DNA of 64,000 nucleotides from Salminus brasiliensis (Eukaryota), in contig NC_132885.1 of assembly GCF_030463535.1 (NCBI RefSeq), forward strand, positions 19,665,786 through 19,729,785. Reading direction: 5' to 3'. A program made the translations under genes and the position numbers. Shown in pieces: positions 395 to 54,477 of this stretch. The notes below the pieces were generated by a model. The model saw nothing but the letters and a program-made list of their open reading frames with translations, made no database searches and was not told where the DNA came from. The number at the start of each line of letters is the position of its first letter. The stretch's first letter is position 1.

Positions 395-1130
395 ATGTAC
401 ACATTAACTTGCACTATACAAACTTTATACATATTCTATACATACTCTATACACACTCTATACACCATATATATTCTAAACATACACTATACATACACCA
501 TACATACTCTATACATACACAATACATACACTATACACTATACATACTCTATACACCATATATATTCTATACATACACTATACATACACTTTACATACTC
601 TATACATATTCTATACATACTCTATACATATTCTATACATACTCTATACATACTCTATACACCATATATATTCTAAACATACACTATACATACACTTTAC
701 ATACTCTATACATACACTATACACCATATATATTCTATACATACACTATACATACACTTTACATACTCTATACATACACTATACATACACTATACACTAT
801 ACATACACTATACACCATATATATTCTAAACATACACTATACATACACCATACATACTCTATACATACACCATACATACACTATACACTATACATACTCT
901 ATACACCATATATATTCTAAACATACACTATACATACACAATACATACACTATACACTATACATACTCTATACACCATATATATTCTATACATAAACGCT
1001 ACATACATTTTACATACTCTATACATACTCTATACACCATATATATTCTAAACATACACTATACATACACTATACATACACGATACATACACTATACACT
1101 ATACATACTCTTGCTTTCACTTTATACCAC
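395..1130. repeat. Tandem satellite of about 10-12 bp units (CTATACATAC[A/T]CT variants), about 730 bp, forming the tail of a dispersed element whose head is at 240-395
   Basis: Visible periodicity. The ORF-track proteins (YTYSIHTLYI...) are translation artifacts. Confidence 0.9.
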
Positions 1131-2774: not shown

Positions 2775-3053
2775 TTATTTAGGTAGTAATGGCTGTCGTT
2801 CAGCTGAAAAGAATCCAGTTATGGTTGTATGGCCTGTATACTTTTTTATTTGGTCCAGTTTGGTCTGTACATTGACCTCAGCACGCTCTTTGACCTCTTC
2901 TTTAAGTTTTACTTTCAGCAAGTTGTCAGTCTCTTCCAGTACGTATTCATTAAAGAGAGTCTTATTGTAGAACTTGTGTCCTGCTCTTTTTGAACAGCAT
3001 AAAACGAGTGCCCATAACACCAACATCCCACACAGGAGAGCCAAGCCAAAGAC
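2775..3053 (-). CDS. CALHM/FAM26-like paralog A, coding exon 2 (TM4 VFGLALL... plus C-terminal helix, stop)
   Basis: Acceptor tttattttcaag|GTCTTTGGC, in frame with ORF 2775..3074. Same VFGL/VYGL/IIGL exon-2 start as paralogs B and C. Confidence 0.6.
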   Translation of the reverse strand, partial: VFGLALLCGMLVLWALVLCCSKRAGHKFYNKTLFNEYVLEETDNLLKVKLKEEVKERAEVNVQTKLDQIKKYTGHTTITGFFSAERQPLLPK

Positions 3054-3197
3054 CTTGAAAATAAATGTTTGCAATGAGAAAGCATAATCAGCATCAAGAT
3101 AAATCCACAGTGGGTAACTAATTCATATTAAATAACACCATCATCCTGACACATCATTTCATTTGACAGAAACCAGTTGATTAAATACAGTACTTAC

Positions 3198-3671
3198 ACA
3201 TGACACACTTTTCCAGTGTCTCATAGCTGCATAATCGTCACCTGTAGGTTTGTTTTTACAAGCTGGTTGCTCACTTCTGACTGTTATGTTCCGTGATGTT
3301 GTTTGAAGGCAGACCCACCAGTCTCCATCTATCAGTGCAGTTACGATCCATAGCAAACCCACTGCAAAAGCTCTCAGAAGTCGATTAAGAATTACACCAC
3401 TGTAAGTACAACAGTTCCTGTCTGTAAAAATCTCCAAAAATGTGTTGTCCACCACGATTATAATGCTGAAAAAAATGATGAAGGGAAGAATCATATAAAG
3501 TAAGCAGAACCAGGCGTTGTCTTCAGGGTCGCACGGACAAACAAACTCCTGTTTGAAAAGATAACTGAAGGTAACAAAAAAGAAAGCCACAGCAAAAGCA
3601 CCACCAGCTGATGTTAGTACTTTTGGTAGGGCTGCAGTATCAAAGTTTGGATGTTGCATGGCAGGTTGCAT
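3198..3671 (-). CDS. CALHM/FAM26-like paralog A, coding exon 1 (N-term, TM1-3, FVCPC and LIDGDWWVC motifs); donor GTAAGT at 3197-3192
   Basis: ORF 3159..3671 minus. Motifs LLTSAGGAF, FVCPCD, ALIDGDWWVC resemble human CALHM5/6 (LLTAGGERIF, FQCPCS, ALLGGAFYEC). Donor immediately after KSVSC. The start could instead be the downstream Met (MQHPNFD). Confidence 0.65.
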
Positions 3672-5599
3672 GGCAGACTATTGCCTGCTTTGTGCTTTTT
3701 GAAATTGGGTTTGCTGGGAGGCAGTCCAGGGTATGAAAGTACATCAATAGAAGAAGCCTGCTTATGAATGAAAGGTAGAGGGGGAGGAGTCAGACCTGTG
3801 CTCTTTTCTCACCAGATATTTGCTATATCCTGTTTCCATTGTGTGCACAACAGATCTGGGCCTTTTAGTTATCTCATTTCAGATCTTCAGAATTTCATAT
3901 TATCTTTACTGGAGATCAGAAGCCGCTTTTGCACTAGACAAAGGTAGGCAGCCTTGGGCTCTCATGAGACAAGAGACAATATGAGTGAGATGCATGTTGT
4001 TGTTATCTAATAACATACAAAACTGCAATAGCAGCAATTACAATTATATTTAACATGAATTATGGAGGATGTTTATTTGTGTGATGTTCTGGGTGTTTAG
4101 GGTGAAAGCAGAGGAATCCAAAAACGGGGAAGGATTGCAAAGCAAAAGGTTTCCAAATATAACACTGTTTTCAGCCTGAACATAGCTCAGCTCACATAGG
4201 CTCAGCAAGCCATACAAAATGCCAGTATAGTAAGTGTAGACAACTCTGACTGCCAGACACATATGGAACATCTGATAATCATGTTAATGGTGGCGACCAT
4301 GACACTGATAAACATGGTAAAGGTGACTGTTGAAAAGGGATCTACCTAACCAACATGGCTCACTATCAGTGCAGTGAAAAACCTTTATTCATCGCCAAAC
4401 ACAGTGTATAGGAACTGTAATCCATTACATTTAAGTAATGAAATATTGACTTTTTGATTTCATTATATTATTTTGTTCCACTTTTCTTTGCTGAAGGCCT
4501 TTAGTTATGATGTTTCTTGAGGCTGTTGCCTCAAATTGTCTATAATGTTTAGGTTAGGGGACTGTGAGGGTCGTTACAAAGCTTCAGTATGTGTCTTCTG
4601 ATGTAGAAGCTATCTGTGTGTTTTGACCTCTTTAGTCCACAGCACTTGTTTGCAAAACTGATCTGTCTTGTCTAGATGTTCTATGGCATACTTCAAACAT
4701 TGAGTTTTGTAATAAGGTTGCATGTAAGGTTTCTTTCTTGCGTATCTTCCACAAAGATACACAGGCAATGCTGTACAGTGGAATAGTGCCCCACCCTCTT
4801 GACCTTTACGTTACCCTTCTTGCAGGCTCTTGTCAGTCAGAGTTTTGATTTGCCTCTCTTCAAGCATACAAGCAGTTATTTCAGCCTTTCAGAGATCTTC
4901 CAGATCTCATCTGGACCTCTGGAGTTCCCCTGAACACTTGTATGTCATCTACAGACTGACTTACGTTTAGAAAGGTCTTTAGAAAGGGGGTGCTACATTT
5001 TAAACGATGCTGGATTAGTTGTGTAGTTTTGCTGGTTTATAGGGTTGGGCGGTATCCCCTTTTTTTACACCATCATACCATTTTAAGATATTACCACGAT
5101 ATGCGGTATTAGTGGGGACGGGGAGTAGTGCAAGTTGTGCAAGTAGTGCAGATGGTCCTTTATTTTTGTAGCTTCTGTATGATATTATCCTGTGCTATTT
5201 AAGAACCACAAAACAATCAAATAAGAAGTTCTGTATGTTCCCAGTGTCACAGACTAAATTACCACCATGCACACCATTCAATAAATGTTAAACCATCAGT
5301 CTGCCAACAACTGCAAATGTTAAAGAGAAGCTGATTATCCTTAGTCAGCAAGATAACAATCTGCTCACCTGAAAGCCCACTTATACATTTTAGACAATAA
5401 TAACTCAGATCGAGCGACTGGTGTTGGTGGAAGGATAGAAAGCTGGACATAAAGGTTTTTTCAATGACTGAAGTCTAAAACTCACTGACACTACCGAATG
5501 CTGATGCTGAATGGTGTTACCACCTCAGCCAGGGTTTTGCTGCAGCCCACAGTTGCTGCTTGTTTGTGGGTCTTTCTGCTTTCAGTTTTGTCTACTGTA

Positions 5600-6440
5600 A
5601 GTGAAAGGCATGCTCAGCTGGGTTGAGGGTTTAAGCCATTTCAGAAGATTTCGTATTTTTAAGAAGCTACATAAAGAAGCTGTTTGAGTGACAGCATTCA
5701 GTAAATTGACCAGCACACAAGATCATCAGTTCAAACAGAAGTTACTTGAGTCTAAAATAAGGCCCAAAACAACCCAAGAACCATCAAGGCAAAGGTCTGC
5801 CATGAACGGAAAGCTACTAGAACATCAATATCATTGCCTCGCCATGGACTAACTAACAGGCTGCCTTTCAAGAAAGAAGCTCCTGCTTCAAAATTGACAC
5901 CTTCAAGCTCAACTAAAATCTGCAGCTGATTGCATGGACAAAGAAAAAACCTTTCACCCTAAAGTTTTTAGGGTCAAAGACAAAGATGTAAGACATTCTA
6001 CCCCAATCACAATGCATAACTCTTAAGCATTGTAGTGGTCGTAACATGTTTCTGGGGCTGTTTTAGTTACCTTACATTGCACAAAGTGGAGTCCTGAAGA
6101 AACCTTCAGCATCACCTTAAAACATCAGCAAGACGGCTAAAACTTGTAGACAATCAGGTGTTCCAACGGGACAGTGACCCCAGATGCAAATCAAATGTGG
6201 TTGGGAAAAGGATAAAGCAGATTAACATTAAGCTTTTGAAATGGCATTCCCAAAGTCCTGACCTCAAATATGTAGACTTTGCTTAGGTCCATGCCAGGAA
6301 ACTAACAAATTTAACTAATTCTGCCAAAATGAGCAATCAAATATTCAACAAGAAATCTTTCCAAAACCTGGCGACCAGAAGCATTTAACATCTTAGAAAT
6401 TTGCTAAGGGACTTTTAACCCAATATTAGGTATGCTGTAT
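5600..6440 (+). mobile_element. Degraded Tc1-like transposase remnant (...FQRDSDP...WHSQSPDLK...); an adjacent antisense Tc1-like fragment lies at about 4400-5110
   Basis: Decayed DDE-region motifs in translation. Confidence 0.5.
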
Positions 6441-8454
6441 GTATATGTATGTATATTTTTGATCATGTGTGTTTAATTTTGACCCTGTGTTGACTTCTGA
6501 CCCCAATCCCCCCCCCCCATTTGTGCAAAACACTTTTCTTTTCTTAGAACCAGAATGTAATCACTGAAAGCCCAACACTGTCTATGAGGAGACGTATGTG
6601 AACAGCCGACCACAAATGCCTGTATGTAGGTGCCTGCATATGTTCTCATGGCATTGTGAAAGAAAAAAAGACCTCAGCCTTTCTTTGATTTCTACCCGTG
6701 GTAAGTCTGCACTGTGCCTCAAACCAAGGCTTTCTGCTAACCCTGCACATTCTCAAAATGTGGTTGAGTGCATACATTGTCTCAGGGAAAGGCATCAGAC
6801 CTGTTTACAAGAATTTACCTAATTTCTCAGAATGTAAGCGTAACAAACAAGACTCCAGATGACCACTGCACTTCTGTACAAGCAGCAAAAACTGTGCAAA
6901 CACCAAAAAATCTAAACATGAGACACAGAAATGACACGTTTATAACTGGCTTTTCCTTTTCATGCATGTCTTGTTGACTTTAAAATATCCTTCAGTTATG
7001 TCCTATATTTTTTATATACGGTAGAGTTGGACTGTTTTATGTTATGACAGCTAATAACACTGCTTTCTGTCTTTGTGAAAAGATATAAAAAGCATTCTAC
7101 ACAGTGTAATATTTGATGGCTCTAGTGTAACATGGTACATGTACATATTCATGATTTTAGAACTTGAATGAACATATTTTAAAAGGTTTATCCTTATTCG
7201 CTATATTGCCTTGTGTAAAACTTTGTTTAGTGATTTTGTCTAATCTGTGTAAAGTAAAGAAGGGTATCCCTGCAATCTAAAGCCAGCTCCAAATGAGCGG
7301 TAGAACATTTTCATACACATCTCAGCGGATGAAAGCTTCGGCTTGTTAGTTGGTGCGTATGTGAGTTTGACTGTAAGTAGCAGAACTAAGGACACCAGAA
7401 ACAAAATAAAATAAGGTTGACAGTAACACGCTTTCTACTTATGGGGTGGAAGGAGCAATGACTGTTCCGTTCTGCAAAAATAACGGCAAAAGTGTCAGCC
7501 ATTAAATTTGCAACCAGAGTCTGTGCATTAAAGACCACAGGTGAAGCCAGACTCGCCTACTTAATTGGTAGACTGGCCCCTTCTCTGAGAATAAGCGTGC
7601 CTCAGACTGCAGAAGTAGAGGGCATAGAGTAGGATAGGAACAGTTGGGACTGCACATATCCCTTTTAAGTGCGGACAGTTGGGACATTCGACATCCAGCG
7701 AATACTGAATTGTCCCTAACAATATTTTTAATTATGTATTTGGTAAACCTCATTAAATGAGGGACGATTCAGTAGGCTATTAATCCTAAACGTGTGTGTG
7801 TGTTTGGCAATTAGCCTAATTTGGTGATATTCTCAGTCATTGACTAATGTGTATAGTCAATATAGTTGTGCTTACACAATAATAAGGTTATCTCAGTCCA
7901 TGGACACTTCAAATATTCACTTTAGTTAAAACATTTCCCACTTCCTGCACTACTTACTGTAGGTATTTGCCTGATCAACCTAATCAGATCATTAACAAGC
8001 CGTTCCTCAGGTAAAGTGGGTGTACTCGAGCAGGAAACATTAAGATGTGCAGGACAGGTGTTTACTTACCTCTCCATCTCCATCTGAATACTTCTTGGTA
8101 AAGGCTGGGATCTGTGGTATTTATGTAAAAGCTTGCTCTTTGTTTTTCTTTTGACTTTTTTAATGTATTAAGTCAATTCTATAAACATACCACAAGAAAC
8201 AAAATTCCAAATTCTCTTCGATTGTATTAATAAATACTCAATGCAGTTTGTGACCGTTATTGAAAAGTTGACTGCACATATCCCTTTTAAGTGTGCCAGA
8301 ATGTTTAATAAACATTACTTAAGCATTACTTTAACCTATATAGTCCTTAATTCTATCTTTTTGTGACCTGTATTGTAACACATTTCTACCCTTACTGAGC
8401 TTTCATTAAGCATTATTCAGTCATCGTTAGCACTACCTCATGTGCTACAATAGC

Positions 8455-8545
8455 AAGCTGCATAAAATTGCTTCATTTACATTTACGCCATTTAGAAGAC
8501 GCTTTTATCCAGAGCGACTTACAAAAGTGCTTTGCAATTTACTCA
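8455..8545. repeat. Fragment resembling a widespread teleost interspersed repeat (catttacatttacgccatttagaagacgcttttatccagagcgacttacaaaagtgc)
   Basis: I recognise this as a conserved core found in many fish SINE or dispersed repeats. I recall the family only vaguely. Confidence 0.35.
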
Positions 8546-9075
8546 AGAATAACCTTAGCTAGTTTGAATAGACTAAAAAATCAAAGATACCTCTAAGCTT
8601 AGACACTACTAAACACAAGTCAATATAGAGGCCTTAATACTCTACACTTCACTCAGTTCTGAGGGTGATTGTGGTCAAGAACATATGGTTATGTGAATGT
8701 AAAGGGTGAAGTAAGGAGGAACAAGTCAACCACAGCTTACAGATATTAACCCTTTTAATACACACCAAGGTAAACACAGACAGTGTAACCACCAGTAAAG
8801 CCACCAAGATGGTATACAGACTGTAAACATAGTCTGCTTACATGAAAAGGGAATCTGGTAGCACCAAAGGAAAAATCAGTTTCAAAACCAACAAACCAAA
8901 GAGTTAGGTTAGTTTTTTGTTTAAATTATTTAATGATGAACTGAGACATTGCTTCACCATTTAGTAATTGGTTGTAATATGTTTAATGGGTGATTAATTG
9001 AGACATTAGTTGAGACATAAATGAGTAATGCTTAATAATGTTTTAACTAGTACCAAGTAATAATTGGTACTAGGA

Positions 9076-11800
9076 TTTGGTCATGTTCAGGTTGCAGTTG
9101 ATCAGGATTTGGGGTTGATGCTGGTTGTGTTCAGGTTGCAGTTGATCAGGATTTGGGGTTGATGCTGGTCGTGTTCAGGTTGCAGTTGATCAGGATTTGG
9201 GGGTTGATGCTGGTCGTGTTCAGGTTGCAGTTGTTCAGGATTTGGGGGTTGATGCTGGTCATGTTCAAGTTGCAGTTGATCAGGATTTGGGGGTTTATGC
9301 TGGTCGGGTTCAGGTTGCAGTTGTTCAGGATTTGGGGGTTGATGCTGGTCGTGTTCAAGTTGCAGTTGATCAGGATTTGGGGTTGATGCTGGTCGTGTTC
9401 AGGTTGCAGTTGATCAGGATTTGGGGGTTGATGCTGGTCGGGTTCAGGTTGCAGTTGATCAGGATTTGGGGGTTGATGCTGGTCGTGTTCAGGTTGCAGT
9501 TGATCAGGATTTTGGGTTGATGCTGGTCGTTTTCAGGATGCAGTTGATCAGGATTTGGGGGTTGATGTTGGTCGTGTTCAGGATGCAATTGATCAGATTT
9601 GGGGGTTTATGCTGGTCGGGTTCAGGTTGCAGTTGATCAGGATTTGGGGTTGATACTGGTTGTGTTCAGGTTGCAGTTGATCAGGATTTGGGGTTGATGC
9701 TGGTTGTGTTCAGGTTGCAGTTGATCAGGATTTGGGGTTGATGCTGATGGGGTTCAGGTTGCAGTTGATCAGGATTTGGGGGTTGATGCTGGTCAGGTTC
9801 AGGTTGCAGTTGATCAGGATTTGGGGGTTGATGCTGGTCAGGTTCAGGTTGCAGTTGATCAGGATTTGGGGTTGATGCTGGTCGTGTTCAGGTTGCAGTT
9901 GATCAGGATTTGGGGTTGATGCTGGTCGTGTTCAGGTTGCAGTTGATCAGGATTTTGGGTTGATGCTGGTCGTTTTCAGGATGCAGTTGATCAGGATTTG
10001 GGGGTTGATGTTGGTCGTGTTCAGGATGCAATTGATCATATTTGGGGGTTTATGCTGGTCGGGTTCAGGTTGCAGTTGATCAGGATTTGGGGTTGATACT
10101 GGTTGTGTTCAGGTTGCAGTTGATCAGGATTTGGGGTTGATACTGGTTGTGTTCAGGTTGCAGTTGATCAGGATTTGGGGTTGATGCTGATGGGGTTCAG
10201 GTTGCAGTTGATCAGGATTTGGGGGTTGATGCTGGTCAGGTTCAGGTTGCAGTTGATCAGGATTTGGGGTTGATGCTGGTCAGGTTCAGGTTGCAGTTGA
10301 TCAGGATTTGGGGTTGATGCTGGTTGGGTTCAGGTTGCAGTTGATCAGGATTTGGGGTTGATGCTGGTCGGGTTCAGGTTGCAGTTGATCAGATTTTGGG
10401 GTTGACGCTGGTCGGGTTCAGGTTGCAGTTGATCAGATTTTGGGGTTGATGCTGGTCAGGTTCAGGTTGCAGTTGATCAGGATTTGGGGGTTGATGCTGG
10501 TCAGGTTCAGGTTGCAGTTGATCAGGATTTGGGGGTTGATGCTGGTCAGGTTCAGGTTGCAGTTGATCAGGATTTGGGGGTTGATGCTGGTCAGGTTCAG
10601 GTTGCAGTTGATCAGGATTTGGGGGTTGAAACTGGTCGGGTTCAGGTTGCAGTTGATCAGGATTTGGGGGTTGAAACTGGTCGGGTTCAGGTTGCAGTTG
10701 ATCAGGATTTGGGGGTTGATGCTGGTCAGGTTCAGGTTGCAGTTGATCAGGATTTGGGGTTGATGCTGGTTGTGTTCAGGTTGCAGTTGATCAGGATTTG
10801 GGGGTTGATGCTGGTCGTGTTCAGGTTGCAGTTGATCAGGATTTTGGGTTGATGCTGGTCGTTTTCAGGATGCAGTTGATCAGGATTTGGGGGTTGATGT
10901 TGGTCGTGTTCAGGATGCAATTGATCAGATTTGGGGGTTTATGCTGGTCGGGTTCAGGCTGCAGTTGATCAGGATTTGGGGTTGATACTGGTTGTGTTCA
11001 GGTTGCAGTTGATCAGGATTTGGGGTTGATGCTGGTTGTGTTCAGGTTGCAGTTGATCAGGATTTGGGGTTGATGCTGGTTGTGTTCAGGTTGCAGTTGA
11101 TCAGGATTTGGGGGTTGATGCTGGTCGGGTTCAGGTTGCAGTTGATCAGGATTTGGGGGTTTATGCTGGTCGGGTTCAGGTTGCAGTTGATCAGGATTTG
11201 GGGTTGATGCTGGTTGTGTTCAGGTTGCAGTTGATCAGGATTTGGGGGTTGATGCTGGTCGGGTTCAGGTTGCAGTTGATCAGGATTTGGGGTTGATACT
11301 GGTCGGGTTCAGGTTGCAGTTGATCAGGATTTGGGGGTTGATGCTGATGGGGTTCAGGTTGCAGTTGATCAGGATTTGGGGGTTGATGCTGGTCAGGTTC
11401 AGGTTGCAGTTGATCAGGATTTGGGGTTGATGCTGGTTGTGTTCAGGTTGCAGTTGATCAGGATTTGGGGGATGATGCTGGTCAGGTTCAGGTTGCAGTT
11501 GATCAGGATTTGGGGTTCATGCTGGTCGTGTTCAGGTTGCAGTTGATCAGGATTTGGGGTTGATGCTGGTCGGGTTCAGGTTGCAGTTGATCAGATTTGG
11601 GGGTTTATGCTGGTCGGGGTTTCAGGTTGCAGTGGATCAGGATTTGGGGGATGATGCTGGTCGTGTTCAGGTTGCAGTTGATCAGGATTTGGGGGATGAT
11701 GCTGGTCAGGTTCAGGTTGCAGTTGATCAGGATTTGGGGTTGATGCTAATCTGTTTCAGGTTGCAGTTGATCAGAACTTGGGGGTTGTTGCTGGTCATGG
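9076..11800. repeat. 44/45-bp minisatellite (GTTCAGGTTGCAGTTGATCAGGATTTGGGGTTGATGCTGGTCGT), about 61 copies, with a roughly 444-bp (10-monomer) higher-order periodicity
   Basis: The variant block gattttgggttgatgctggtcgttttcaggatg recurs at about 9507, 9950 and 10839 (spacings 443 and 889 bp). All ORFs inside are artifacts. Confidence 0.92.
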
Positions 11801-12052
11801 ATTTGCAGTAGGGGTTGAATGCTGTTGTGGAATATCAAGCAGGCCGGTCTTTTTCAGTTTATTTTTTGCATTTACTGTTGCCTTGACTTTGGACAGCTCT
11901 TTAATGCTCTTTTCTAGAAGTTGGTCAGTCTCCTCCAGCACATATTCACCATACAAAGCCTGCTTACAGGATTTGTATCCTTTGCTTTCTGAAAAATATA
12001 TACCTATTGCCCATAAAATTAATATCACAGCCAGCACAGCCAATCCATACAC
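11795..12052 (-). CDS. CALHM/FAM26-like paralog B, coding exon 2 (TM4 and C-terminus, stop at 11795-11797)
   Basis: Acceptor ctccttaag|GTGTATGGATTG, in frame with ORF 11795..12085. The stop codon sits inside the last degenerate unit of the 9076-11800 minisatellite. Confidence 0.65.
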   Translation of the reverse strand: MYGLAVLAVILILWAIGIYFSESKGYKSCKQALYGEYVLEETDQLLEKSIKELSKVKATVNAKNKLKKTGLLDIPQQHSTPTANP

Positions 12053-12156
12053 CTTAAGGAGAATGTTTGAAAAGAGAAAGCACAATTTTTATAAATTGTA
12101 GTTATTTAATTTAACAACATTTCAAGGAATACAAAATCACTAGATTGAATACTTAC

Positions 12157-12606
12157 ACGCGATTGATTTGTGAAGTGTCTGATATTTGCAAATTCATCAC
12201 TGGTAGGTTCCTTCTTGCAAGCTGGCTGTTCAGTCCTGACTGTTATGTTGGTTGACGTGGTCATAATGCACACTAGGCAGTCACCATCCAGGAGTACTGT
12301 TACAATCCATAGTAAGCACACAGTTGTAGCTCTCAGAATTCGCTTCAAACATGAAATTAATTGACAGGAGGAACAAAGATTAATAAAGATTTTGTCTGCT
12401 ACGATTATAATTCCAAAAAATATGGAAGCGGGTGCAAAAATGTAAATCGAGCAAAACCACAGGTTTTCTTCATGGTCGCACGGGCAATCAAACTCCAGTT
12501 TAAAAATATACTGGGAAGTAACAAAAAAGAGGATGCCTACAAATGCACCATCAGCTGATGTTAGCAGCTGTGATAGCGCTTTAGTGCTGAAGTCCGGATG
12601 GGTCAT
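12157..12606 (-). CDS. CALHM/FAM26-like paralog B, coding exon 1
   Basis: ORF 12106..12606 minus: MTHPDFSTKALSQLLTSADGAFVG...FDCPCDHEEN...TVLLDGDCLVC...HFTNQSR|gtaagt (donor 12156-12151). Confidence 0.7.
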
Positions 12607-15181
12607 TGTTGCTGCTCAGACTGTAACCTGACTTGTGATTGATGAACTTGCTGTTGTGAAGCAGTCCAGAGTATGAAGGAACACCTGAAGGGGACATTAG
12701 ATAAAGCCTGCTAAAGAGGGAGGAGTCACAACATGTTGTTGTTGTCAGTTCTTATTTCCTCTTACGCTGTTGTGGATTTTTATATATGATCTTGTTATAA
12801 ATACAGTACAAATATTCAGGGTGTACCTTTTCCCATTGCACCTCCAATCTTTGGAACTCTCTTTATGATAACCTTAGGGCTCATAAATGTTTTCTGCACA
12901 TTTTGGATTACGGCCTATCTGGCAACACTGTAGTAGAAAACAGTAGATGGATACTGAATTGATCAACTATGATTTTTATGTTCTTTAACGTAATATATGT
13001 CCATGCCCTTTCTGTCTGTGTAAATTGGGCATTTGCAGGAATATTTTGCATGTGAGTGCATGCATGTTTACTCTGAAGATATGACTCAGCCTTTACTTGA
13101 TTTGTATCTGGACTTCATTTGCACCTGTGCTTTGTACTGTACCAATGCATTTGGCACACATACTACCCTGCATTAGCTTTTGATGTGGTTGAGTGCATGC
13201 CTGTTCTCAGGCAGCAGACCTGTTTACTAAATTTCTACACAATTTCTCAGAGCATTAACGTAACAATCATAGGTGGGCATGACCACATTCACACGCTGAG
13301 CTTCCGTATGAACAGCAGCTGTGTTTTCTCAGTGTACAGTGGTATGTGTGGCACACTTTGTCAAAAGTTCTGTTACTGTGAAGAGTTAAGCAAGTAAAAG
13401 ATGGCCTAATTTCCAAAAGGCATAAAGTTAAAGATAAAAATTTGTCAACATTTGTCAGTAAGATCAATTTTTATTTCCATCTTTCACAGTTTTAAATAAC
13501 AAAAAAAGAAAAGGGGCCCAAAGAAAACAGTTGGGCACCCTGCATGGTCAGTGCTTAGTAACATCCCCTCTGACAAGAGTCTTTCAGGTTTTATTTGAGG
13601 GATGTTGGCCCACTTTCCCTTGCAGAGGTCATGTATAAGATTCTTGGGTCATGAAAGTGAAGCTGTATTGAACAGTTGGAAAAGAGGAGATAAAAGAAGG
13701 ATTTTAAGCTTCAGGATTGCTGCGGGAACCAGAGACTGTGGGAAGTCTCAATTGATGGTTGATGGTTCTCTCCCCCGCAGGTTTAAAATATTTGCATATT
13801 CTCAGACAATTAGGGTTGTCTTTAATGCACGTGCAGGTGGAAGCGAGGGAAGAGTTCATTTGGCGGCAAAAATATTAGCAGAAAAGGAAGGTCTTGTAAA
13901 AGAATATCGATTCTGTTGTTAAATAGCTGGCAATCTAAAGATTGACAGCCGCATGCAGTGGCAGAAAGGGCAGGATAAAAGGTTTAATGGCACGATGCTA
14001 ATAGCCAGGTGAAGAATAGGTCACGAATGCTCTAAAAACGGTCTTGAAATCATGCTGTCACAAGACCAATAAAAATATAGTCTTTGGCGGCCAGGGTCAT
14101 CATACATACATTTCATTTCTTGTCATGTCATTTTGGGTAAATCAAACATTTCCTGTTTTTCATTCATTTTGCCTTAACATTGATGGTATGGACAAAGTGT
14201 TTAAGCTTCCAACCAAACACAGCAGAGCAACTTTGTCCCTCTAAATTCTGACATTACAGATCGTTCACTTTTTTATTTTATATTTATTAGGAAATAAATG
14301 TATTAGTAAAAAGGTTCTGTTAGAAGCACAAATGTGATTTCAAATAAATTGACCACAGGCCACAGATTCATTCTGTAAACACATGCTACTAGGGAATAAA
14401 AAGTCACTACACTGCACTGCCTACTTTTAACTCTCCAAAAAGTAATTAAAGATATCCAGCTAATATTTAGGTTTCATTAAAAGAGATACGCAAAGCCTCA
14501 CTGTAATGCGAACTACAAAAATAATACAGAACTACAAAAAATACTTCATTAATTAATGAATGAACCAGTTTAACAATCTTACCTAAAAGAATGATTTACC
14601 AATTACCTTATTTACGGTCAATCAGCCAAGACATATTGGTTCCTCAAGACTGCTTCTTAATTTTACATTGGACAGATGCTAGGCTAGGCTGCTTTAAACT
14701 GGCCTCAATGAGTAAAATACTGTGTGTCCTTGTTGATTTTAAAGACTAAGTTATACCATGTTCTAAACCACATTGAGGTGAAATTGGTCCAGTGTTTATG
14801 AACAACCTAAGCTTACACTAAAGAAATACAGATATCAAACATATCTTGGCTAATAAACTACCTCTGGGATAAACTTAGTTTTAGTGTCTTTTAGACCACT
14901 TTTTTTATAAGCCTTTGTAGTTTTTTTGTAAGCAAAAGAAAGTATTGAGATGATCCTGCATATTTCAAAGGATGTGCTTTTCATGCAGAACATAAAATTA
15001 CAGCTAACGGTAGTAAAATGGTTAGAAATATCCTCCAACACCTTTCCATCCTAATAAATAACTCACACATAGGTGCTGTGGGTAACATAAGAGAATAAGG
15101 GTGCATGTCTCAAATTGAGGTTTTTTTTATGTAAATAAGAATTGATGTCAAGGTAAATTGAAGTCTGTCAAGTTGTAGATT

Positions 15182-15520
15182 TCATGGATGGGTCCTTGCT
15201 CCCTCCAAGTGGAATGTTGGGTGAGAAATTGTCCTCCAGACATTTTCCTCTGCAGCCCCTAGTGGCTCGTACTGAATATGACGGGCATCTCCCTGCCCAC
15301 TGTTCACAGGCTGACTCTGAACATATCTCAGTACATTCTCACTGACCAGCTTGGCTCTTTCCACTGCCTGCTCTTGTAGCTTTTCCTCCAGCATAGCAGA
15401 GGTCTCCCGCTCCACATAAACCTCAAACAATGACCTGTAATACGGCTTCCACCGGGTCTTGAGGGCTGAACTTACAGTCAACAGGAGAGAGAGTCCCAGA
15501 ATGAGAATCAGTCCAATTAT
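15182..15520 (-). CDS. CALHM/FAM26-like paralog C, coding exon 2 (IIGLILILGLSLL TM4 plus coiled C-terminus, stop)
   Basis: Acceptor tcttccag|ATAATTGGACTG at 15521/15520. Frame is continuous with ORF 15182..15481; the track M there is TTG. Confidence 0.65.
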   Translation of the reverse strand: MIGLILILGLSLLLTVSSALKTRWKPYYRSLFEVYVERETSAMLEEKLQEQAVERAKLVSENVLRYVQSQPVNSGQGDARHIQYEPLGAAEENVWRTISHPTFHLEGARTHP

Positions 15521-16573
15521 CTGGAAGACAGATACAGAGAGGTTTTAATGATTCAAGCCTGCACTCAAACCTTCACACACTGCAAGTTAAGATGGTTTAT
15601 TCTTTCTCCTGTAAAGTGGCCATTTGGAGAGTTTCTGTGTGACAGCGATGGCACATCATGCTGGTCATGTTTACACAGCTTGTCCTTAGTCTTCGACCAG
15701 TTGGTTGATTATATGAGGTGAGCTTCAGCTTGGTTTATATGAAAGCGTACTGCCACTCCAGCTTATTCTGGGTCAGATTTGTGGCCCCTGATCCCAGACC
15801 CATAGGCACACCCCAAAATACCTAACACAGCTACTTCCCAAAGCCTGTGCTGCAGCCAAGAAAGGCTGTGTTTCTTGACTGAAGGCTGTTTGGTTTTGTA
15901 AAGTGCTTACGATTATTATCATCATTATTATTCAAATTATTATTATCATTGTGAGAGCCATTATCTCTAAATATAGAAACCCTGGAAGAGTGGTGGATCT
16001 TCACAGAAGTCACAAGAGAACCCAGGCAAAAATGTAAGAAAGTCTACTTTACTTAAAGTTTAACTATATTATTAAAAGTAGCAAAGGACGCAACTCCCAC
16101 TATTTATAATGGCCTGCATGAGATGAACATAAAAAAAGGGCAGGGCTCAACATTACTGATGGAAGGCCAGGAAGAGGACGTTTTGACTTTCACCTGATGA
16201 AGGCCATGTGGTGCCCAAACTTCAAGACATTATTAATGCATTGGGTGAATAAAGGCATCTTTTACGCAGTGGGAGTTGCTCCTTCTTGGGTCAGGGATCA
16301 TTATTCCACCATTAGGAAGAGAGTCCTCTGACATCTGACATATACAATATACAATGGTGGTGGTTGTATAATGATGGTAGGATGCTTTACTACTTCAGGG
16401 CCTGGATGACCTGCTATAATTGACCGCTTGTGGTGCTCCTCAGCGCCAGAGGTAATGCCAGGGTACCTTCTATACCGTAGACACGTGCGTAAAATGAATG
16501 CACACCGCAGATTCAGCGTAAAAGGTTTGTGTGGTTGAATCCTGGTAAGAATTAGCATACAGTAAGTACTCAC

Positions 16574-17143
16574 CCTGGATTCGCTGTTGTACTTTCTTAA
16601 AGTTTCTGCTTCTTGCGGGGTTGGCAAATCCTTGCAGGCGATTTGTTCCCCCGTGCCGTTCACAACGACGGTCCGGACGCACACGTACCAGTCACCGTCG
16701 AGAAACGCGACCACGATCCAGAGGGATGCCGCGTAAAACACGTTCAGCACGTGTCTCCCGATCAGACCGCAGAAATGCCAGCCTTCCTCCCCGAAGCTTT
16801 TGGGGCGGTAACAGTAGCCGCCAGCACAACAGCAGCACTCAAACGTGTCACAGCACTCACTGCTGCTGCAGCACCTTTTCTCCGAGCGGACACAGCACTG
16901 ACACACATAACACTGGCACACCTTCAGCAGCTGCGAGTCCAGCAGGATGAGGATGAAGAACATGATTCCCACTGGAAGCAGCAGATAGAGCCAGCAGTGC
17001 ACCGCGGTCTCCTCGGGAGCTGTGCATGGACACGTGAACACGAACTTGAAGAAGATGACTGTGGTCACCACGGCGATGACCGTCCTTACAGGATGCCTGC
17101 TTAATACGTCCAGATTTGTCGGATAAGATGGATATCGTGACAT
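16574..17143 (-). CDS. CALHM/FAM26-like paralog C, coding exon 1, with Cys-rich TM2-TM3 loop insertion
   Basis: ORF 16301..17143 minus: MSRYPSYP...FTCPCTAPEE...AFLDGDWYVC...NSESR|gtgagt (donor 16573-16568). 190 codons. Confidence 0.7.
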
Positions 17144-22023: not shown

Positions 22024-24021
22024 GTAAGTGTTGTCTTTTCCCCTGCACCCAACCCCCCCCCCCCCCTCCAGTGCCAGTCGTCATTGGAAGAAGAAGTGTG
22101 AAGGGCCAGATGTGCTATGTTAAAAAATATTCACCACAGGTCTAAAACTCCTTTGGGTTGTATTATGTTGTAGTAAAATGTTTATTATACCTTGTGTTTG
22201 TTGACAAATCATCCTTAAATAATGATTACTCAACTTAGTATTAACAACTACATAATCATTGTGTGAAACCTTGTATTTTCTATGCATCTATACAAATGAT
22301 TATCCGATACTTATATCATGTAGGCTTACACACATAGCTAACAATGTATGGCTTGTTTCTAACCCACATAATACCCACTTGTAACACGTATTGGTGTGCG
22401 ACATATAGAGTCACTTTGCATGGCATATTACTCACCCACTTACTAACTTACATGATATTTACTCATAAGAAGTATTATAACCTTATTACATTGTATGGCC
22501 TACTAACTCACATGACATGGCCTCCTGAGACACATTAACATGTAACATATGGAGTTCTATGGTAAAGGCGGGTGATTCACGCTTAAAGACATTTGCGTTA
22601 CTAAAACTATACATCAGCATGACAAGTGAGGCCACTCCATGTGTCTGAAGTCACTGTCATGGACCATCGTGTTGGCCCCAATTGGGACTGGTGTACTTTG
22701 TTTGAACTGAAGTGATATGGAGGGGATGCTGATAGGGTCGGACAAAGCGGCCTTCTCTCTGTGTGGGTAACTCCCTAACCTGCAGCTGCCTCGCACACAC
22801 ATAGAGAATGCTACACTGTCCAGCTTTGAGAAAATACAAAACATAGTCAAGGTCAAGCATGATGGTGGAGTCAGACACGTGAATCTGAGTACTAACATGT
22901 GCCATCTTGCATATTCACATAGACTAATCTGTAGAAACGCCTCATCGGCAGGTTTCACGTCATTTGGGGTATAAACGTGGAGTCAGATGAGAACGGGGTC
23001 AGAACTTTGCTTTGGGATGGTTGATACACTGTCTTTAATGCATTTGTTCTCCTGGATCCAGCATTCTTAAATAAATACTTTGGTTTGCTTCTAACTTCAC
23101 TCCACTCGTCAGCGACTCTTTCCACAAAACGAACACGCAAGGTGTCGGCCCCGGAAGAGGGGTGGGGTACGGGCAACACTATGTAGACATTTTTCTACAA
23201 TTACAACAGCTGTTTTTGAAAGGGCCAAGTTCAAGAAACTGTCAGGGATCTGTCGTGCTGTGCTGTGAAATTCTCCCATAATAAAATGTAATACAGTAGC
23301 TAGGATTGGTTAAGATGGGTAAATGTAGTAGCACAGTACGTTCTCCAAATGTTCCCAATATTTGATATTTTACAGTGATTGTACAAATTATTTTTATACA
23401 ACTGTTAACAGCACTAAATCCAGCTAAACTGAACCAGAACTTTTTATGGTCACTTTGCAATGAAACGCATGCAATGAATATACACATGCAATGATAAACA
23501 TGGTCAGATATTCCTCCACATTTTGTCAAAGGGCAAAAATAGAGGTACAAGGTTTTATGTGACAGCAGCTTCATATACACACAGTACTCTGCAGAGGTGT
23601 TGAGCACCTAAACACATGACACATTAAAATTATGTATCTTGTGTATTATGTAAGAGTGTTTACACTTGTAAAAAAACAACAACAACACCAGATCACATTA
23701 GACATGATGGTAAACAAAAATACACTCAGAAGAGACCAGAATTTCACATTTTGAAATTTTGATAGAAAGCTAGTTTGACACAACCAGCTTGGTTCCCAGC
23801 CATTGCTTGGATTTGTTAAATTCCCTTACAGGCTCTCCTGATTAAGCACTTTTTTTTTTACCAAACCAGATGTTGTGGATGGTAACTATGAATAATACTA
23901 GACTTCTATGAGGAGAGTCTTGACGCTGTTTTGATGAACACAGTGATGGTGTAGAAAAGTGAGATGGTCAAAGGATGTTCTTTAAGACTCACACACACTG
24001 ACTGCTGTGTTTTCTGCGCAG

Positions 24022-24217
24022 TGTTCTTTTGTGGTGACGAGCAGCCTGGAGGACCTGAGCAGCAACAGACTGAGAAGTGTCCAGAAGCACCAGATCCCTG
24101 TGGTTGGGTTGCAGTTTGTGTGGAACTGCCTGGAGAAAGGACTCCTCCTACCTATAGAAGAGCACAGCTTAAAACCACAGCCTTCCGATCTCACACACCC
24201 ACCACCTCCACACCCAG
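24022..24217 (+). CDS. parp4: PARP4 exon 2 (BRCT)
   Basis: Acceptor ctgcgcag. CSFVVTSS...IPVVGLQFVWNCLEKGLLLP resembles human CTHIILDN...IANPDFIWKSIREKRLL. Ends in phase 1. Confidence 0.85.
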
Positions 24218-24584
24218 GTATTACAGCCTTACACAGCTTTCTTTATGTAGACACCTTTCTTCACTGATGCAGACAATTAAAGACGGTTGCTACACATTTG
24301 ACATTTTTTAAACGTGATGTGTTTAGATGTTTGCTCAGCAGTGGAGATAAAAAGAGGGAGGGTGCCTGTATAAGAGGACTCACTGTAGTTTTTCACTGTC
24401 ACAGCTCGATTGTTATGTGTTAACCGTAGGTGTGTGTGCTTGTGTGTGTTTTATACATGTGTAAGGTGGAGTATGACTGTGTAACCAAGAAACTGGGTGT
24501 AGAAGAAATCTTGTTTAAGCTGCATTGCTAGTTTGTGAGCATTACACAGAGGCAATGTGTGCACTGTTGTTCTTTTTCACAAAG

Positions 24585-24727
24585 GTATGAAGTTGTCCAC
24601 CCAGTTTCCAGTGGGACTGAAGTCCAGTGATCAGATCATACCATGCACATTAAACAAGGATAATTATCAGGACATACCAGCATTTCCTTCATGTTTCCAA
24701 GTTGCCAAGTACACCATTTTTTACAGG
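24585..24727 (+). CDS. parp4: PARP4 exon 3
   Basis: GMKLSTQ...FQVAKYTIFYR resembles human ...DFEVAKYNTLEKV. Donor agg|gtgagt. Confidence 0.8.
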
Positions 24728-25483
24728 GTGAGTTTATCTTGACTGTTCATTTAAAATTATTAGAAATGCTCTTTACACTCACAAGATGGTCTTAACATCC
24801 AGGTGTATTTAAACTGCTCAACCCTTATCTTATCTCATAGGCTATACATTCTGGCACCATGGCTTTGTCTTTAACTCATTTCAGTCTGTCGCTAGAATAG
24901 CTGGGATACCAGCATGTTCACATTGGACATATTACATGTATCAGCATATGGAATTGAAACTTTCTTAATGCCACTGTGCATTCTCTCACCATACCAAAAA
25001 AGCATGATGCTGCCCTTATTGTTGGATACACTGCAGTATTTTATGAGCAAGCACACATCTCAACAGAGTCCACTTCACTTAGAGCTTTTTGCTCTTGGTT
25101 TATTTTTATAACAATAAAAAAAGTGTGAAATATATTCTTTTTTAGCATGTCCAAGCGGTTACTTTATGACCTACACCAAAACATTTTAAAGATGTTGTTT
25201 AAATATTTAAATAAAATAAATAAATACAACACTGAGAAATCCTATTAAAGAGGAATAAAAGACTAAAAGGTAGGGCTGGGCAATATGACAATATTGTATC
25301 ATAGTGTAATTAGTTGTTTTTAATTGGATACAGCAGATTTTGGATATAAATAAATATTGTGTATTAGGTAAATAAATTAAATAAAAGCCCTACTAAAGGG
25401 TATTTTCTTTGTATTATAAGGTTAATTAACTATAAAATAAAAGAAAAAGGTTCTGTGTTACTCTTTGTATTTGTATGTTGTAG

Positions 25484-25582
25484 GCTGCAGACAAGATCTG
25501 GTCAGTCCTGGAGCTTCAGAGTGCAAGAGGAGAGGAGGGACAGCAGTATCGCATTGTGAAGTCTGTTGTTCATGAGATGAAG
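25484..25582 (+). CDS. parp4: PARP4 exon 4
   Basis: Acceptor gttgtag, donor aag|gtgagc. 99 nt in frame: AADKIWSVLELQSARGEEGQQYRIVKSVVHEMK. Confidence 0.7.
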
Positions 25583-26025
25583 GTGAGCTTCTGAATCTGA
25601 AAGCACCTTAACCCTGAGAAACTCATCCCTTAGTTAATATGTAATGTTGTTACTTTAAACTTTAACATGTAAATACATACTTATGTAGCTGCGTAGTTTT
25701 CAGATTACACCTCTGCTCAGATTTTTTTAAAAGAATATAAGAATAGTAATGAAAAGTTCAAGAACAGTTTAAAGAAACTGTGCAGATCGGTTTCAATCTG
25801 TACATTGTCAGAATATCTTATAATACAAGTCTGTTGTAGTCAGTGTTTGTGATCTTTGATTTTATCAGAGTATTCCTTTACTCTATGCATCTGTGGGGCT
25901 GGTAGAGGCCTTACATAATTAGTTGAGGCTTAAGATGAGGAGGAATGAATGCTGCTTGGTCCTGATGTCATTATTTTTCTTCTTATTATTATTGTTATTA
26001 TTTTTTTGTTTTTTCTCTGCTACAG

Positions 26026-26184
26026 AAAACAGCAGAAAAAGATAAGCAGATGCACAGCTCCAGCTCCGAAGAAGCAGTGGAGGTATATCTGATATGGAGG
26101 GAGGAACTCTTTGGAAAAGGCTTTACACAGATGCAGACACTTCCTCCAGAAGCTCAAAAGCTGGCCTCCCATGGCCTGCAGCAG
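26026..26184 (+). CDS. parp4: PARP4 exon 5
   Basis: Acceptor ctacag, donor cag|gtcagt. ...EAQKLASHGLQQ resembles human EATQLASEQLQ. Confidence 0.8.
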
Positions 26185-26345
26185 GTCAGTCAACACTGCA
26201 TCACCAAGTAGATGCTGAATTAGCTGAAAAGGTTCTATTTGAGTGACGTTTAGAACAGAGCTGACATTAATCAAATGTGTCAAGTTTAATTGATCCAGGT
26301 TGAACATTTAATTGTGTAACAAATCATGGACTCTGTGACTGGCAG

Positions 26346-26483
26346 CTTTTGTTGGAGGAGAAGTTGAACTGCAGCACAGTCTCACAGGAGGTGGGCACCT
26401 TTGTGGAACTGATCTGGACCGAAGCCCTCGGGTCACTCAACAGCATTCTGATGGTTCCTGTTACCAGCATCAGTCTGAATGAT
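26346..26483 (+). CDS. parp4: PARP4 exon 6
   Basis: LLEEKLNCSTVSQEVGTFVELIWTEALGSLNSILMVPVTSISLND resembles human LLLEEVMNSSTLSQEVSDLVEMIWAEALGHLEHMLLKPVNRISLND. Donor gat|gttagt. Confidence 0.85.
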
Positions 26484-26613
26484 GTTAGTAGCATGGCAGC
26501 AATCAAATCATCATTTTCCTTTTTAAATGTTTTATTGAAACCTGTGACCTGTCTTGAATCAATAAATGCTTTAATGTCAGATGTAATGTATGTGTGCTCG
26601 CACGTGTTTACAG

Positions 26614-26772
26614 GTGAGCAGGGTGGAGGGTTTGCTTCTGGAGGCACAAAAGCGTCAGTGTGAGGATGAGGTGAAGGCTCTGCTGGAGGAGGTCAACACC
26701 CTGTTACCGCTTGTAATGGTGGAGCCTGACTCAAAACAAAAACTTATATCTAAGAAACTGGACCTCTGCCAG
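26614..26772 (+). CDS. parp4: PARP4 exon 7
   Basis: VSRVEGLLLEAQKRQCEDEVKALLEEVNTLLPLV...KKLDLCQ resembles human VSKAEGILLLVKAALK...LAKKADLCQ. Confidence 0.85.
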
Positions 26773-26856
26773 GTAACATATAACAAAATATTTTACTCTG
26801 TTACACCAGCTGCATCATATAATATCTGACTTTTAGAACTGTATTGACACCTCCAG

Positions 26857-27008
26857 CTGATTCGAGATATTCTGAATATGAGTGAGGCCACATTGGGAAA
26901 CCCCTCTCCATCCTCCTTGGGGAAGTATCGTGCCCTGAGGTGCAGTATTGAACTGGTGCAGCCCCAAAGCTCAGAGTTTCAGTCTGTCTCTCAGCTTTTG
27001 CAAGATAG
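26857..27008 (+). CDS. parp4: PARP4 exon 8 (PARP regulatory/catalytic region)
   Basis: LIRDILNMSEATLGNPSPSSLGKYRALRCSIELVQ resembles human LIRDMVNVCETNLSKPNPPSLAKYRALRCKIEHVE. Ends in phase 2. Confidence 0.85.
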
Positions 27009-27121
27009 GTAGGTGCAGTATGTACACCATGTTCCGGACATTTACGCCTTTATGTCTGTATGTGCTTATGCTTAAACTGTATGTGGTTACATTTTGGTTT
27101 GTTTGTGTTTTATTGCTACAG

Positions 27122-27253
27122 GCCAGTCCAAATCCAGCAGATACTGCGTGTGAATAGAGGGGCTGAGCTTCATATGTTCAAGGAGGAGCTAGGCAGCATT
27201 AAGCCCCTCCTACATTCTTCTCGCCCCAGCAGTTTTATGGGAATCCTGTCTCG
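27122..27253 (+). CDS. parp4: PARP4 exon 9 (catalytic His: LLHSSRPSSFMGILSR)
   Basis: PVQIQQILRVNRGAELHMF...LLHSS resembles human VDVLQIFRVGRVNETTEF...LLHGSPVQNIVGILCRG. Confidence 0.85.
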
Positions 27254-27732
27254 GTGAGAGTCTGTCTCTTAAGCTAGGCAGACCCTGTGCAAGTTTGGAA
27301 ATTTTGTTCTTTGGTGATTAGCCACACATTTATATTGTCCATCGAATACATCGAATGAAGTTGTCGGTCCGACTTGCATGCTGCGATGTGGGAGCTCACA
27401 CTGCACATGAAATGCAGCCCCTTGAGTTCTGTCTACATTTTGCATTTTGCAGCCTGTGTAAAACAGGTTGGGACATCAAGAAATCAGCTTATAAACTTCT
27501 CAAACTGTGAGACAAGCGACCAGATTTTCAGACATGTCAGAAACCCATCTGGTCATCCGACTGCTCACTCAGAGCTCGTTTGGGCAATTATTTGGGCATT
27601 GATTCTTTTCTCACACTGCACATCAAACAGTAGCCAATCTGAAATTCAGGCTTAATAACAGGCTAACATCATCTGGCTTCACACACACACAAATATTTTG
27701 GCTAAATCGAGGGGATTTGGTTCTGTGTGCAG

Positions 27733-27831
27733 GGGTCTGTTGCTGCCCAGGGTTGGAGTAGAGCAGCATGGCATTGAAAGAACAGATGTTGGGAATCTGG
27801 GAAGTGGCATCTACTTCAGTGACTCTCTAAG
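27733..27831 (+). CDS. parp4: PARP4 exon 10 (catalytic Tyr: GSGIYFSDSL)
   Basis: GLLLPRVGVEQHGIERTDVGNLGSGIYFSDSL resembles human LLLPKVVEDRGVQRTDVGNLGSGIYFSDSL. Confidence 0.9.
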
Positions 27832-28566
27832 GTCAGTGTTCCCCCACGGTTTTACATAACCCATTGAAATGGTCCATAAATGTTTATGATCACATGGTTT
27901 CAAATGGATCAGAAGTATTTAGAGGTTTTCACATGTAGGTCTTTTTAAATGAACTGAAGTCATTTCTGTTGAAGTGAACCAGAAATGGAAAGAGATGCAG
28001 CTGACCTCAATGTTGGCACAATTTTAAAGAGGACACTGTGGTGTTTCTGGTCATCTTAAACATTGATGAGATTGATAGCATTAATAGTTCTAGTTCTAAA
28101 ATCTGATGAGCTGAAAAAAAGAATGTTATATTAACTGTTTTATTATGTTGTATTTTATTACATTGCATGCTGTTTGTTGTTAAGCCACCTGAGGGCACTG
28201 ATACACTGACCCATAAGCAAGTATTCTCCTAAGTACTAAGTAGTAAATACTGTGGCTGTATATACTGTAAGCCTTGAGTTTAGTGGAATGCAATGCATCC
28301 TGATGGACAGTTTGTTTTTCCATGGCTCAGAGAATTTACTGTAATAAAAAGCACCCAGAAACAAATTTTATTGAGACCACCAGAAGTTATAAGTACAGAA
28401 AACCAGAATGACTCCGCATCCTTAAAACAACAAATATGTTAGACTGCTAAAATGCTAAAATGGCCCAGAATAAAAATCTATAAAAACTATAACAAGAACT
28501 GAAATTGGGCATCCATGTGCTTTGGCATATGATGCTATATCCTTATGTATCTGTTCTGTGTTCCAG

Positions 28567-28750: not shown

Positions 28751-28835
28751 GTAAATCTTGAACACAAACATTTTTCTAGGTTAAAGATCTTATAGTTTGG
28801 TGACACATTGCTTTTGTGTGTGTCTTTCTATTGCA

Positions 28836-28986: not shown

Positions 28987-29039
28987 GAGTGTCTTACCTG
29001 TTCATCACATTTTCACTATTTCTACCCTCATTGTCCATT

Positions 29040-54473: not shown

Positions 54474-54477
<4 letters not shown>

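Follow-up and report, generated by a model that had tools for sequence, protein, structure and literature searches.

In a 64,000-nucleotide stretch of the genome of the characiform fish Salminus brasiliensis (NCBI RefSeq assembly GCF_030463535.1, contig NC_132885.1, positions 19,665,786 to 19,729,785 of the forward strand; hereafter the window), three tandem genes of the minus strand, here termed A, B, and C, belong to the calcium homeostasis modulator (CALHM, or FAM26) family. CALHM proteins form a small and partly understood family of large-pore ATP-release channels, and discussion of them centers on six vertebrate paralogs; A, B, and C are new members of this known family. We consider it likely that all three are intact, same-strand genes for subunits with four transmembrane helices, that they fall within a mostly unnamed clade of shark and teleost sequences whose nearest relatives are probably CALHM5 and CALHM6, that the trio arose by lineage-specific duplication, and that it matches human CALHM4/5/6 in gene number by coincidence. 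The locus shows that fishes carry an additional, large CALHM radiation, the members of which are mostly labeled "uncharacterized" or misnamed.

Gene models and family membership

Gene models were spliced directly from the window sequence. Each gene consists of two coding exons with zero internal stops, and the introns are of phase 0 with GTAAGT or GTGAGT donors and AG acceptors (Table 1). An earlier interpretation made from the letters alone (the sequence-only reading) had described three minus-strand paralogs of 250, 235, and 302 amino acids (aa) with two coding exons each; its lengths and outer coordinates match the spliced models exactly. The gene C model is residue-identical to RefSeq XP_072541252.1, a Salminus brasiliensis "uncharacterized protein", and its two-exon structure is therefore independently validated. 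Pairwise identity is 52% between A and B (E 5e-78), 32% between A and C (E 3e-26), and 27% between B and C (E 5e-17), a mutual similarity that, judged from these alignments, far exceeds chance. No fourth copy was found in the window with tblastn.

The family signatures listed in the sequence-only reading were recovered to varying degrees. FxCPC is present in all three genes, as FVCPC in A, FDCPC in B, and FTCPC in C. DGDxxVC is likewise found in all three, although it lies at the end of transmembrane helix (TM) 3 and not directly before TM4, where it had been placed. The N-terminal LLTSA.GAF occurs in A and B but not in C, and the proposed S[ER] ending of exon 1 holds for B (..NQSR/VYGL, with the slash marking the intron) and C (..SESR/IIGL) but not for A, in which exon 1 ends in SVSC (..SVSC/VFGL). 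Exon 1 of gene A encodes the N-terminal helix, TM1, the CPC loop, TM2, TM3, DGDWWVC, and extracellular loop 2 with an N-I-T sequon.

Pfam, conserved residues, the predicted folds of A and C, and intron position agree on the CALHM/FAM26 assignment that had been proposed from the letters. All three proteins match Pfam PF14798 (Ca_hom_mod) with E values of 7e-15 to 6e-14, at the bit scores given in Table 1; the curated gathering score of this family is 25 bits. An analysis of 5805 CALHM homologs, published in 2026, identified two disulfide pairs plus F44, Y56, I61, P64, and W117 (CALHM2 numbering) as conserved family-wide (PMC13183375). The CALHM2 disulfide pairs are C46-C130 and C48-C162, and by alignment the cysteines at these four positions are kept in A (45, 47, 121, and 138), B (41, 43, 113, and 130), and C (38, 40, 155, and 170), as are F44, P64, and W117. 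The I61 position is occupied by M, I, and L in A, B, and C, respectively, all of them hydrophobic, and the Y56 position by F, F, and H, a position that is variable across the fish clade.

AlphaFold2 (AF2) models of A and C, built from input alignments of 70-73 sequences, have a mean predicted local distance difference test (pLDDT) score of 85.4 and 78.9, respectively. When these models were compared with PDB in Foldseek, the top 31 (A) and 35 (C) matches were all CALHM1/2/4/5/6 or Caenorhabditis elegans CLHM-1 (E<6e-3, TM-scores of 0.4-0.64), and for both models the next match after them had E>1. CALHM6 and CALHM5 were the best PDB matches of A, and those of C were CALHM5 and CALHM6; no best match fell outside the CALHM family. 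Finally, the phase 0 intron just before TM4, which interrupts the window genes at ...S[RC]/xxGL, aligns with that of gorilla CALHM6 (..AQSQ/VLGW) and Metynnis calhm2 (..YESQ/LLGW).

Predicted channel role and the cysteine-rich loop of gene C

By homology, each subunit would begin with an N-terminal helix and TM1, which the extracellular CPC loop connects to TM2. A cytoplasmic loop would lead on to TM3, and a second extracellular loop, carrying two further cysteines and a sequon for N-glycosylation, to TM4 and a long cytoplasmic helix. Subunits of this kind would assemble into rings of ~8 to 11 and form large-pore channels permeable to ATP and ions. Judging from relatives, the N-terminal helix and TM1 would line the pore, the two extracellular disulfides would stabilize the channel, the conserved sequon of loop 2 would be N-glycosylated, and acylation may contribute to regulation. 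The trio comprises one conserved C-type gene, with 1:1 orthologs in Characiformes and Siluriformes and a Cys-rich cytoplasmic loop, and two fast-evolving A/B-type genes duplicated within Characiformes.

It is also conceivable, if somewhat doubtful, that A, B, and C are not pore-forming alone. They would then modulate heteromeric channels, in the way that CALHM3 partners CALHM1, or act in some capacity other than as channels. We take the C-terminal helix, as in CALHM structures, to be the assembly region, and it is in TM4 (45% identity), this cytoplasmic C-terminal helix (38%), and the tail (23%) that A/B-type genes diverge most, compared with 67-77% in the extracellular loops. The family-conserved Y56 is replaced in all three proteins, and three co-located paralogs could co-assemble. 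A precedent comes from CALHM3, which by itself forms no functional channel (PMC10903462). The predicted fold and disulfide scaffold are nevertheless complete, and at the level of the family a modulatory role is compatible with the explanation that we prefer.

A distinctive feature of gene C is a Cys-rich insertion (Table 1), which is conserved in the Colossoma, Prochilodus, and Hemibagrus orthologs of C and modeled by AF2 with low confidence. S-acylation has been mapped to C100 and C207 in CALHM1 and to C99, C200, and C204 in CALHM3, where it tunes gating and raft association (PMC10903462). C100 and C99 lie in the same juxtamembrane TM2-TM3 loop as the insertion, and the CC pair just after TM4 in CALHM1/CALHM3 is also present in gene A; these two channels, however, have one or two loop cysteines, whereas gene C has 15 in 52 residues. 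By analogy, the loop of gene C is probably S-acylated at multiple sites and would act as a membrane anchor. Alternatively, it may function in metal binding.

The fish clade and its attachment point

A homolog search profile made from the trio and three characiform homologs returned 491 clusters at 50% identity with E<=1e-3, including 216 with E<=1e-10. None of the best 150 of the 491 clusters is close to human CALHM1-6, and the clade contains at least 150 clusters at 50% identity. The names of 30 members were retrieved. All are from teleosts or sharks/rays (0/30 from tetrapods), and nearly all are designated "uncharacterized" or "hypothetical". Teleost sources include tarpon, bony-tongues, shad, sardine, cyprinids, catfish, salmon, smelt, tuna, fugu, and betta, among others. 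The basal group consists of sharks and a ray, two of which are named "CALHM6-like" by NCBI; a search with a profile of these basal members, although swamped by common words, returned six proteins, none of them non-fish. Members share DGDW at the end of TM3, Y at the position equivalent to residue 59 of A, and a shorter second extracellular loop.

Several members carry RefSeq misnomers: P0007, P0018, and P0033 are listed as 'serine/threonine-protein kinase samkC', 'golgin subfamily A member 6-like', or 'proteoglycan 4-like', apparently because of long low-complexity C-terminal tails. A further divergent fish CALHM type, submitter-named 'CALHM5' and grouping with shark sequences, is represented by P0308 of Labeo rohita (locus L006), P0307, and P0072; P0072 combines two CALHM domains within one protein, and the P0308 locus has no called neighbors within 10 kb. 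A gene named calhm5.2 is known from stickleback. No description of this fish CALHM radiation was found in the literature searched.

The named family members were represented by human CALHM1-6 sequences. Those of CALHM4 and CALHM5 are 100% identical to PDB chains 6ytk and 7d60, that of CALHM6 is 100% identical to P0167, and those of CALHM1 and CALHM2 were confirmed over fragments; the CALHM3 sequence has 350 residues versus an expected 344, and the trees also include database sequences of CALHM1 and CALHM3. A, B, and C are 19-28% identical to human CALHM1-6 with no consistent favorite, and as single queries A and C match PDB CALHM chains at only ~20 bits. Fish calhm1, calhm2, and calhm3 of Metynnis are 66%, 66%, and 58% identical to their human orthologs. 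CALHM4-6 evolve faster, with lizard and human CALHM6 at 51% identity. The fish-clade profile scores CALHM1 at 69 bits, CALHM6 at 68.6, and C. elegans CLHM-1 at 51, and its weakest PDB match is human CALHM4 (39.7 bits). Human CALHM4, used as a query, matches CALHM2 at 174 bits, followed by CALHM6 (141), CALHM5 (119), CALHM1 (105), and worm CLHM-1 (77).

A first neighbor-joining (NJ) tree of 101 sequences and 222 columns separated canonical from other sequences with 100% bootstrap. This split was considered as proof that the clade lies outside CALHM1-6 and rejected, since a bipartition shows only that the fish clade is monophyletic; the attachment was then scored directly. Likelihoods were evaluated for 27 taxa and 235 sites under a reversible matrix derived from Gonnet1992 with four gamma categories. 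Twelve placements were compared, and the best was sister to (CALHM5, CALHM6) with CALHM2 and CALHM4 paired (log-likelihood [lnL] -10505.6). With all taxa, placements as sister to (4,5,6), to 4, or to 2 were 10-12 lnL worse. Resampling of estimated log-likelihoods (RELL) on all taxa gave sister to (5,6) 0.78 over two backbones, the central position 0.11, sister to 6 0.07, and sister to (4,5,6) 0.02. For sister to (5,6), the shark-only subset gave 0.61 and the teleost-only subset 0.57, with the placement ranking unchanged; across data sets, sister to (4,5,6) received 0.02-0.11 and sister to 4 <0.01.

The W-x-x-I-S C-terminal motif is found in CALHM2/4/5/6, gene C, and some other clade members, and not in CALHM1/3. 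This motif and the Foldseek top matches, as weaker observations, agree with the likelihood placements in making tetrapod CALHM5/6 the probable sister group of the fish clade, a placement that is statistically insecure. A co-orthologous or sister relationship of the clade as a whole to CALHM5/6 is mildly favored; the clade would be either a fast-evolving fish co-ortholog of CALHM5/6 or an old paralog lost in tetrapods.

Several points weigh against parts of our interpretation. The likelihood program was home-made, with fixed within-group topologies and one sequence each for CALHM4 and CALHM5. With all taxa the central position was only 2.9 lnL worse than the best (standard error 2.6), and the preference for the CALHM5/6 sister placement is not significant. 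In an NJ tree with all 79 non-canonical sequences, the clade was sister to CALHM2+4+5+6 with 95.5% support. The absence of tetrapods rests on 30 named samples and not on a census, and the protein collection searched contains no sequence identical to A or to B, so that independent support is limited to the model of C. Lastly, we infer channel activity, oligomeric state, and S-acylation from distant relatives at ~20% identity.

The same NJ tree is an argument that the clade is a deep, separate third vertebrate CALHM branch outside CALHM2/4/5/6 with no special link to CALHM5/6, which we regard as unlikely. The central position was only 0.8-2.9 lnL below the best tree across data sets, and the profile scores, as high for CALHM1 as for CALHM6 and at 51 bits for CLHM-1, are also in keeping with such a branch. 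The NJ support collapses, however, when only slowly evolving members are used: with shark sequences only, the clade became sister to CALHM5+6 (54%), a shift that is the pattern expected from long-branch attraction. Moreover, sister to (5,6) came out best in each of the three likelihood data sets, and the W-x-x-I-S tail is common to CALHM2/4/5/6 and not to CALHM1/3. We retain the placement beside CALHM5/6 as the probable one.

Gene order, neighbors, and comparison with named CALHM genes

Within the trio, C is the conserved member, and A and B are fast-evolving and C-terminally shortened, as judged from aligned orthologs. The 1:1 orthologs of C are 80-82% identical in two characiforms and 68% in catfish, with a nonsynonymous to synonymous rate ratio (dN/dS) of 0.13-0.35; A/B-type genes of the same two characiforms are 53-56% identical, with dN/dS of 0.39-0.54. 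The distal C-terminal region is retained in C and absent from A and B. That A and B are decaying or non-functional duplicates, with C as the sole working gene, is improbable. Their elevated dN/dS, truncated C-termini without the distal motif, and absence from the protein collection would agree with decay, as would the stop codon of B, which abuts a 2.7-kb minisatellite. Yet both retain intact reading frames, canonical splice sites, and all family-invariant residues, dN/dS is clearly below 1, Colossoma and Prochilodus have retained A/B-type genes with this structure, and the AF2 model of A is confident.

A and B form a clade with three characiform proteins (P0001-3; Colossoma and Prochilodus) at 99.5% bootstrap, and C forms one with P0004 of the catfish Hemibagrus at 100%. 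The A/B grouping implies that the duplication is recent and took place within Characiformes, and that the count of three is coincidental. In Prochilodus, two A/B-type genes come after the C ortholog and share its strand; in Colossoma, at least one comes after it. The arrangement is thus a characiform feature, combining an older split between C-type and A/B-type genes with a recent duplication.

The sequence-only reading had further suggested that the trio may be the orthologous CALHM4/5/6 cluster, with strong divergence of the third member. A probable clade-level affinity to CALHM5/6 remains of this suggestion, but one-to-one correspondence does not, in view of the tree, the identity to the human proteins, and the neighboring genes. 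A, B, and C do not each join one of CALHM4/5/6; they lie in one monophyletic fish clade, and CALHM4 pairs with CALHM2 and never with this clade. The third member, C, is the conserved one and not the divergent one. The genes that we take to be the human 6q22 neighbors are DSE, TRAPPC3L, and RWDD1, and a survey of the 64 kb for open reading frames (ORFs) of >=75 aa found PARP4-like, B7-family, and TRIM45-like genes beside the trio and no 6q22 gene among them (Table 1). Inheritance of the trio, as a trio, from a common ancestor with human 6q22 CALHM4/5/6 is accordingly very improbable. In its favor, each trio consists of two-exon genes arranged in tandem and in one orientation, the window genes agree with CALHM6 in the position and phase of the intron, the fish clade is probably closest to CALHM5/6, and NCBI names shark members 'CALHM6-like'. 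Against it, CALHM4 goes with CALHM2 and RELL support for sister to (4,5,6) or to 4 is low, A and B are recent Characiformes duplicates, no 6q22 neighbor is present while B7-family and TRIM45-like sequences also adjoin the catfish C ortholog, and identity to the human proteins is far below that of fish calhm1/2/3.

Table 1. Positions of the CALHM genes and other features in the 64-kb window.
Feature	Position	Strand	Description
Gene A	exon 1 3671..3198 + exon 2 3053..2775	(-)	250 aa
Gene A exon 1	3198..3671	(-)	aa 1-158; PF14798 52.6 bits; AF2 pLDDT 85.4
Gene A intron	3054..3197	(-)	144 bp, phase 0, GTAAGT...AG
Gene A exon 2	2775..3053	(-)	aa 159-250 + stop; TM4, C-terminal helix, short tail
Minisatellite between A and B	9078..11796		2.7 kb, 44/45-bp unit, ~61 copies, 92% matches, strong GC skew
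Gene B	exon 1 12606..12157 + exon 2 12052..11795	(-)	235 aa
Gene B exon 1	12157..12606	(-)	aa 1-150; PF14798 55.3 bits
Gene B intron	12053..12156	(-)	104 bp, phase 0, GTAAGT...AG
Gene B exon 2	11795..12052	(-)	aa 151-235 + stop
Gene C	exon 1 17143..16574 + exon 2 15520..15182	(-)	302 aa
Gene C exon 1	16574..17143	(-)	aa 1-190; PF14798 52.1 bits
Gene C Cys-rich insertion	16769..16924	(-)	aa 74-125; 15 Cys/52 residues; TM2-TM3 cytoplasmic loop
Gene C intron	15521..16573	(-)	1053 bp, phase 0, GTGAGT...AG
Gene C exon 2	15182..15520	(-)	aa 191-302 + stop; TM4, C-terminal helix, distal W-R-T-I-S motif
PARP4-like exons	23964..31301	(+)	BRCT, PARP catalytic, VIT; divergent from gene C; possibly reaching ~38.2 kb
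B7-family exons (VTCN1/CD276-like)	45370..46189	(+)	immunoglobulin V-set (IgV) + immunoglobulin C-set (IgC); PDB: VTCN1 best per domain, CD276 best overall
TRIM45-like gene	48531..55136	(+)	RING, B-box, coiled coil, filamin repeat; after B7-family gene

Beside the C ortholog of the catfish Hemibagrus wyckioides, a 938-aa model (locus L003, 1..5401) has an Ig V-set domain together with RING, B-box, and filamin domains. This model probably fuses the B7-family and TRIM45-like genes, which the window has as two separate genes, and there is no room for a PARP4-like gene between it and the C ortholog. TRIM45 and VTCN1 are adjacent on human 1p13.1, where no CALHM gene is known; the B7-family and TRIM45-like pair suggests that the trio lies within that syntenic block. 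We tentatively put forward, as a possible scenario, that the clade is a lineage as old as jawed vertebrates: an ohnolog of the CALHM5/6 ancestor in a TRIM45-VTCN1 paralogon (human 1p13). Tetrapods would have lost this lineage and sharks retained it, and in teleosts it would have grown to hundreds of fast-evolving genes, with a conserved gene C sub-lineage gaining the cysteine-string loop. Under this scenario, a three-gene cluster before duplication would explain why CALHM2 is located beside CALHM1/CALHM3 yet groups with CALHM4.

Other elements of the window include repeats. The minisatellite that separates A from B extends as far as the B stop codon, and the 3' untranslated region of B therefore starts inside the array. 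A degenerate tandem array at 412..1111 has an 11-bp unit, CACTATACATA, is also scored at 62- and 91-bp periods, and contains long spurious ORFs; a long (GA)n/(TC)n run at ~63300..63700 yields poly-ER and poly-LS ORFs. A 328-aa proline-rich ORF at 36519..37505 may be the C-terminal exon of the PARP4-like gene, and an ORF at 57731..58003 (+) resembles, by eye, a Tc1/mariner transposase fragment. In Prochilodus magdalenae (locus L001), a DDE_3 transposase gene at 8215..8724 is located between the C ortholog and the first A/B-type gene.

Several human CALHM members count as 'dark' channels (PMC13183375). Natural variants in the fish clade, such as subunits with short tails and a loop whose cysteine string lies where S-acylation is known, could be of use in structure-function work. 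For annotation, the locus is a caution that a matching gene count and family signatures do not prove orthology. Overall, the findings belong to ordinary gene-family biology and their evolutionary point is a modest one; the basic understanding of the CALHM family is unchanged.

Among named genes, tetrapod CALHM5/CALHM6 (FAM26E and FAM26F) belong to the same Pfam family as the window trio and have the fold predicted for A and C. The four extracellular cysteines and the phase 0 intron before TM4 are likewise shared, as is, with gene C, the distal W-x-x-I-S motif. They differ in that identity to the window proteins is only ~18-26%, the fish proteins have an extracellular loop 2 that is ~15-20 residues shorter, and the DGDW of the fish clade corresponds to G[AT]FYE. 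Relative to CALHM5/6, the distal C-terminal domain is missing from A and B, C carries a 52-residue Cys-rich insertion, and the trio has another chromosomal neighborhood and independent duplications. The remaining gene of the human 6q22 trio, CALHM4 (FAM26D), has the family and fold in common with the window genes but groups with CALHM2 and not with the fish clade.

Finally, a second characiform example of three two-exon CALHM genes in tandem on one strand is the calhm3-calhm1-calhm2 cluster of Metynnis hypsauchen, in which the intron position is the same. At this locus (L004, 10001..28053), the deposited protein P0165 (537 aa) fuses a 5'-truncated calhm3 with calhm1, and a separate calhm2 is next, from which the canonical fish cluster reads in that order. 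Its genes are clear orthologs of human CALHM3/1/2, whereas the window trio is not close to them.

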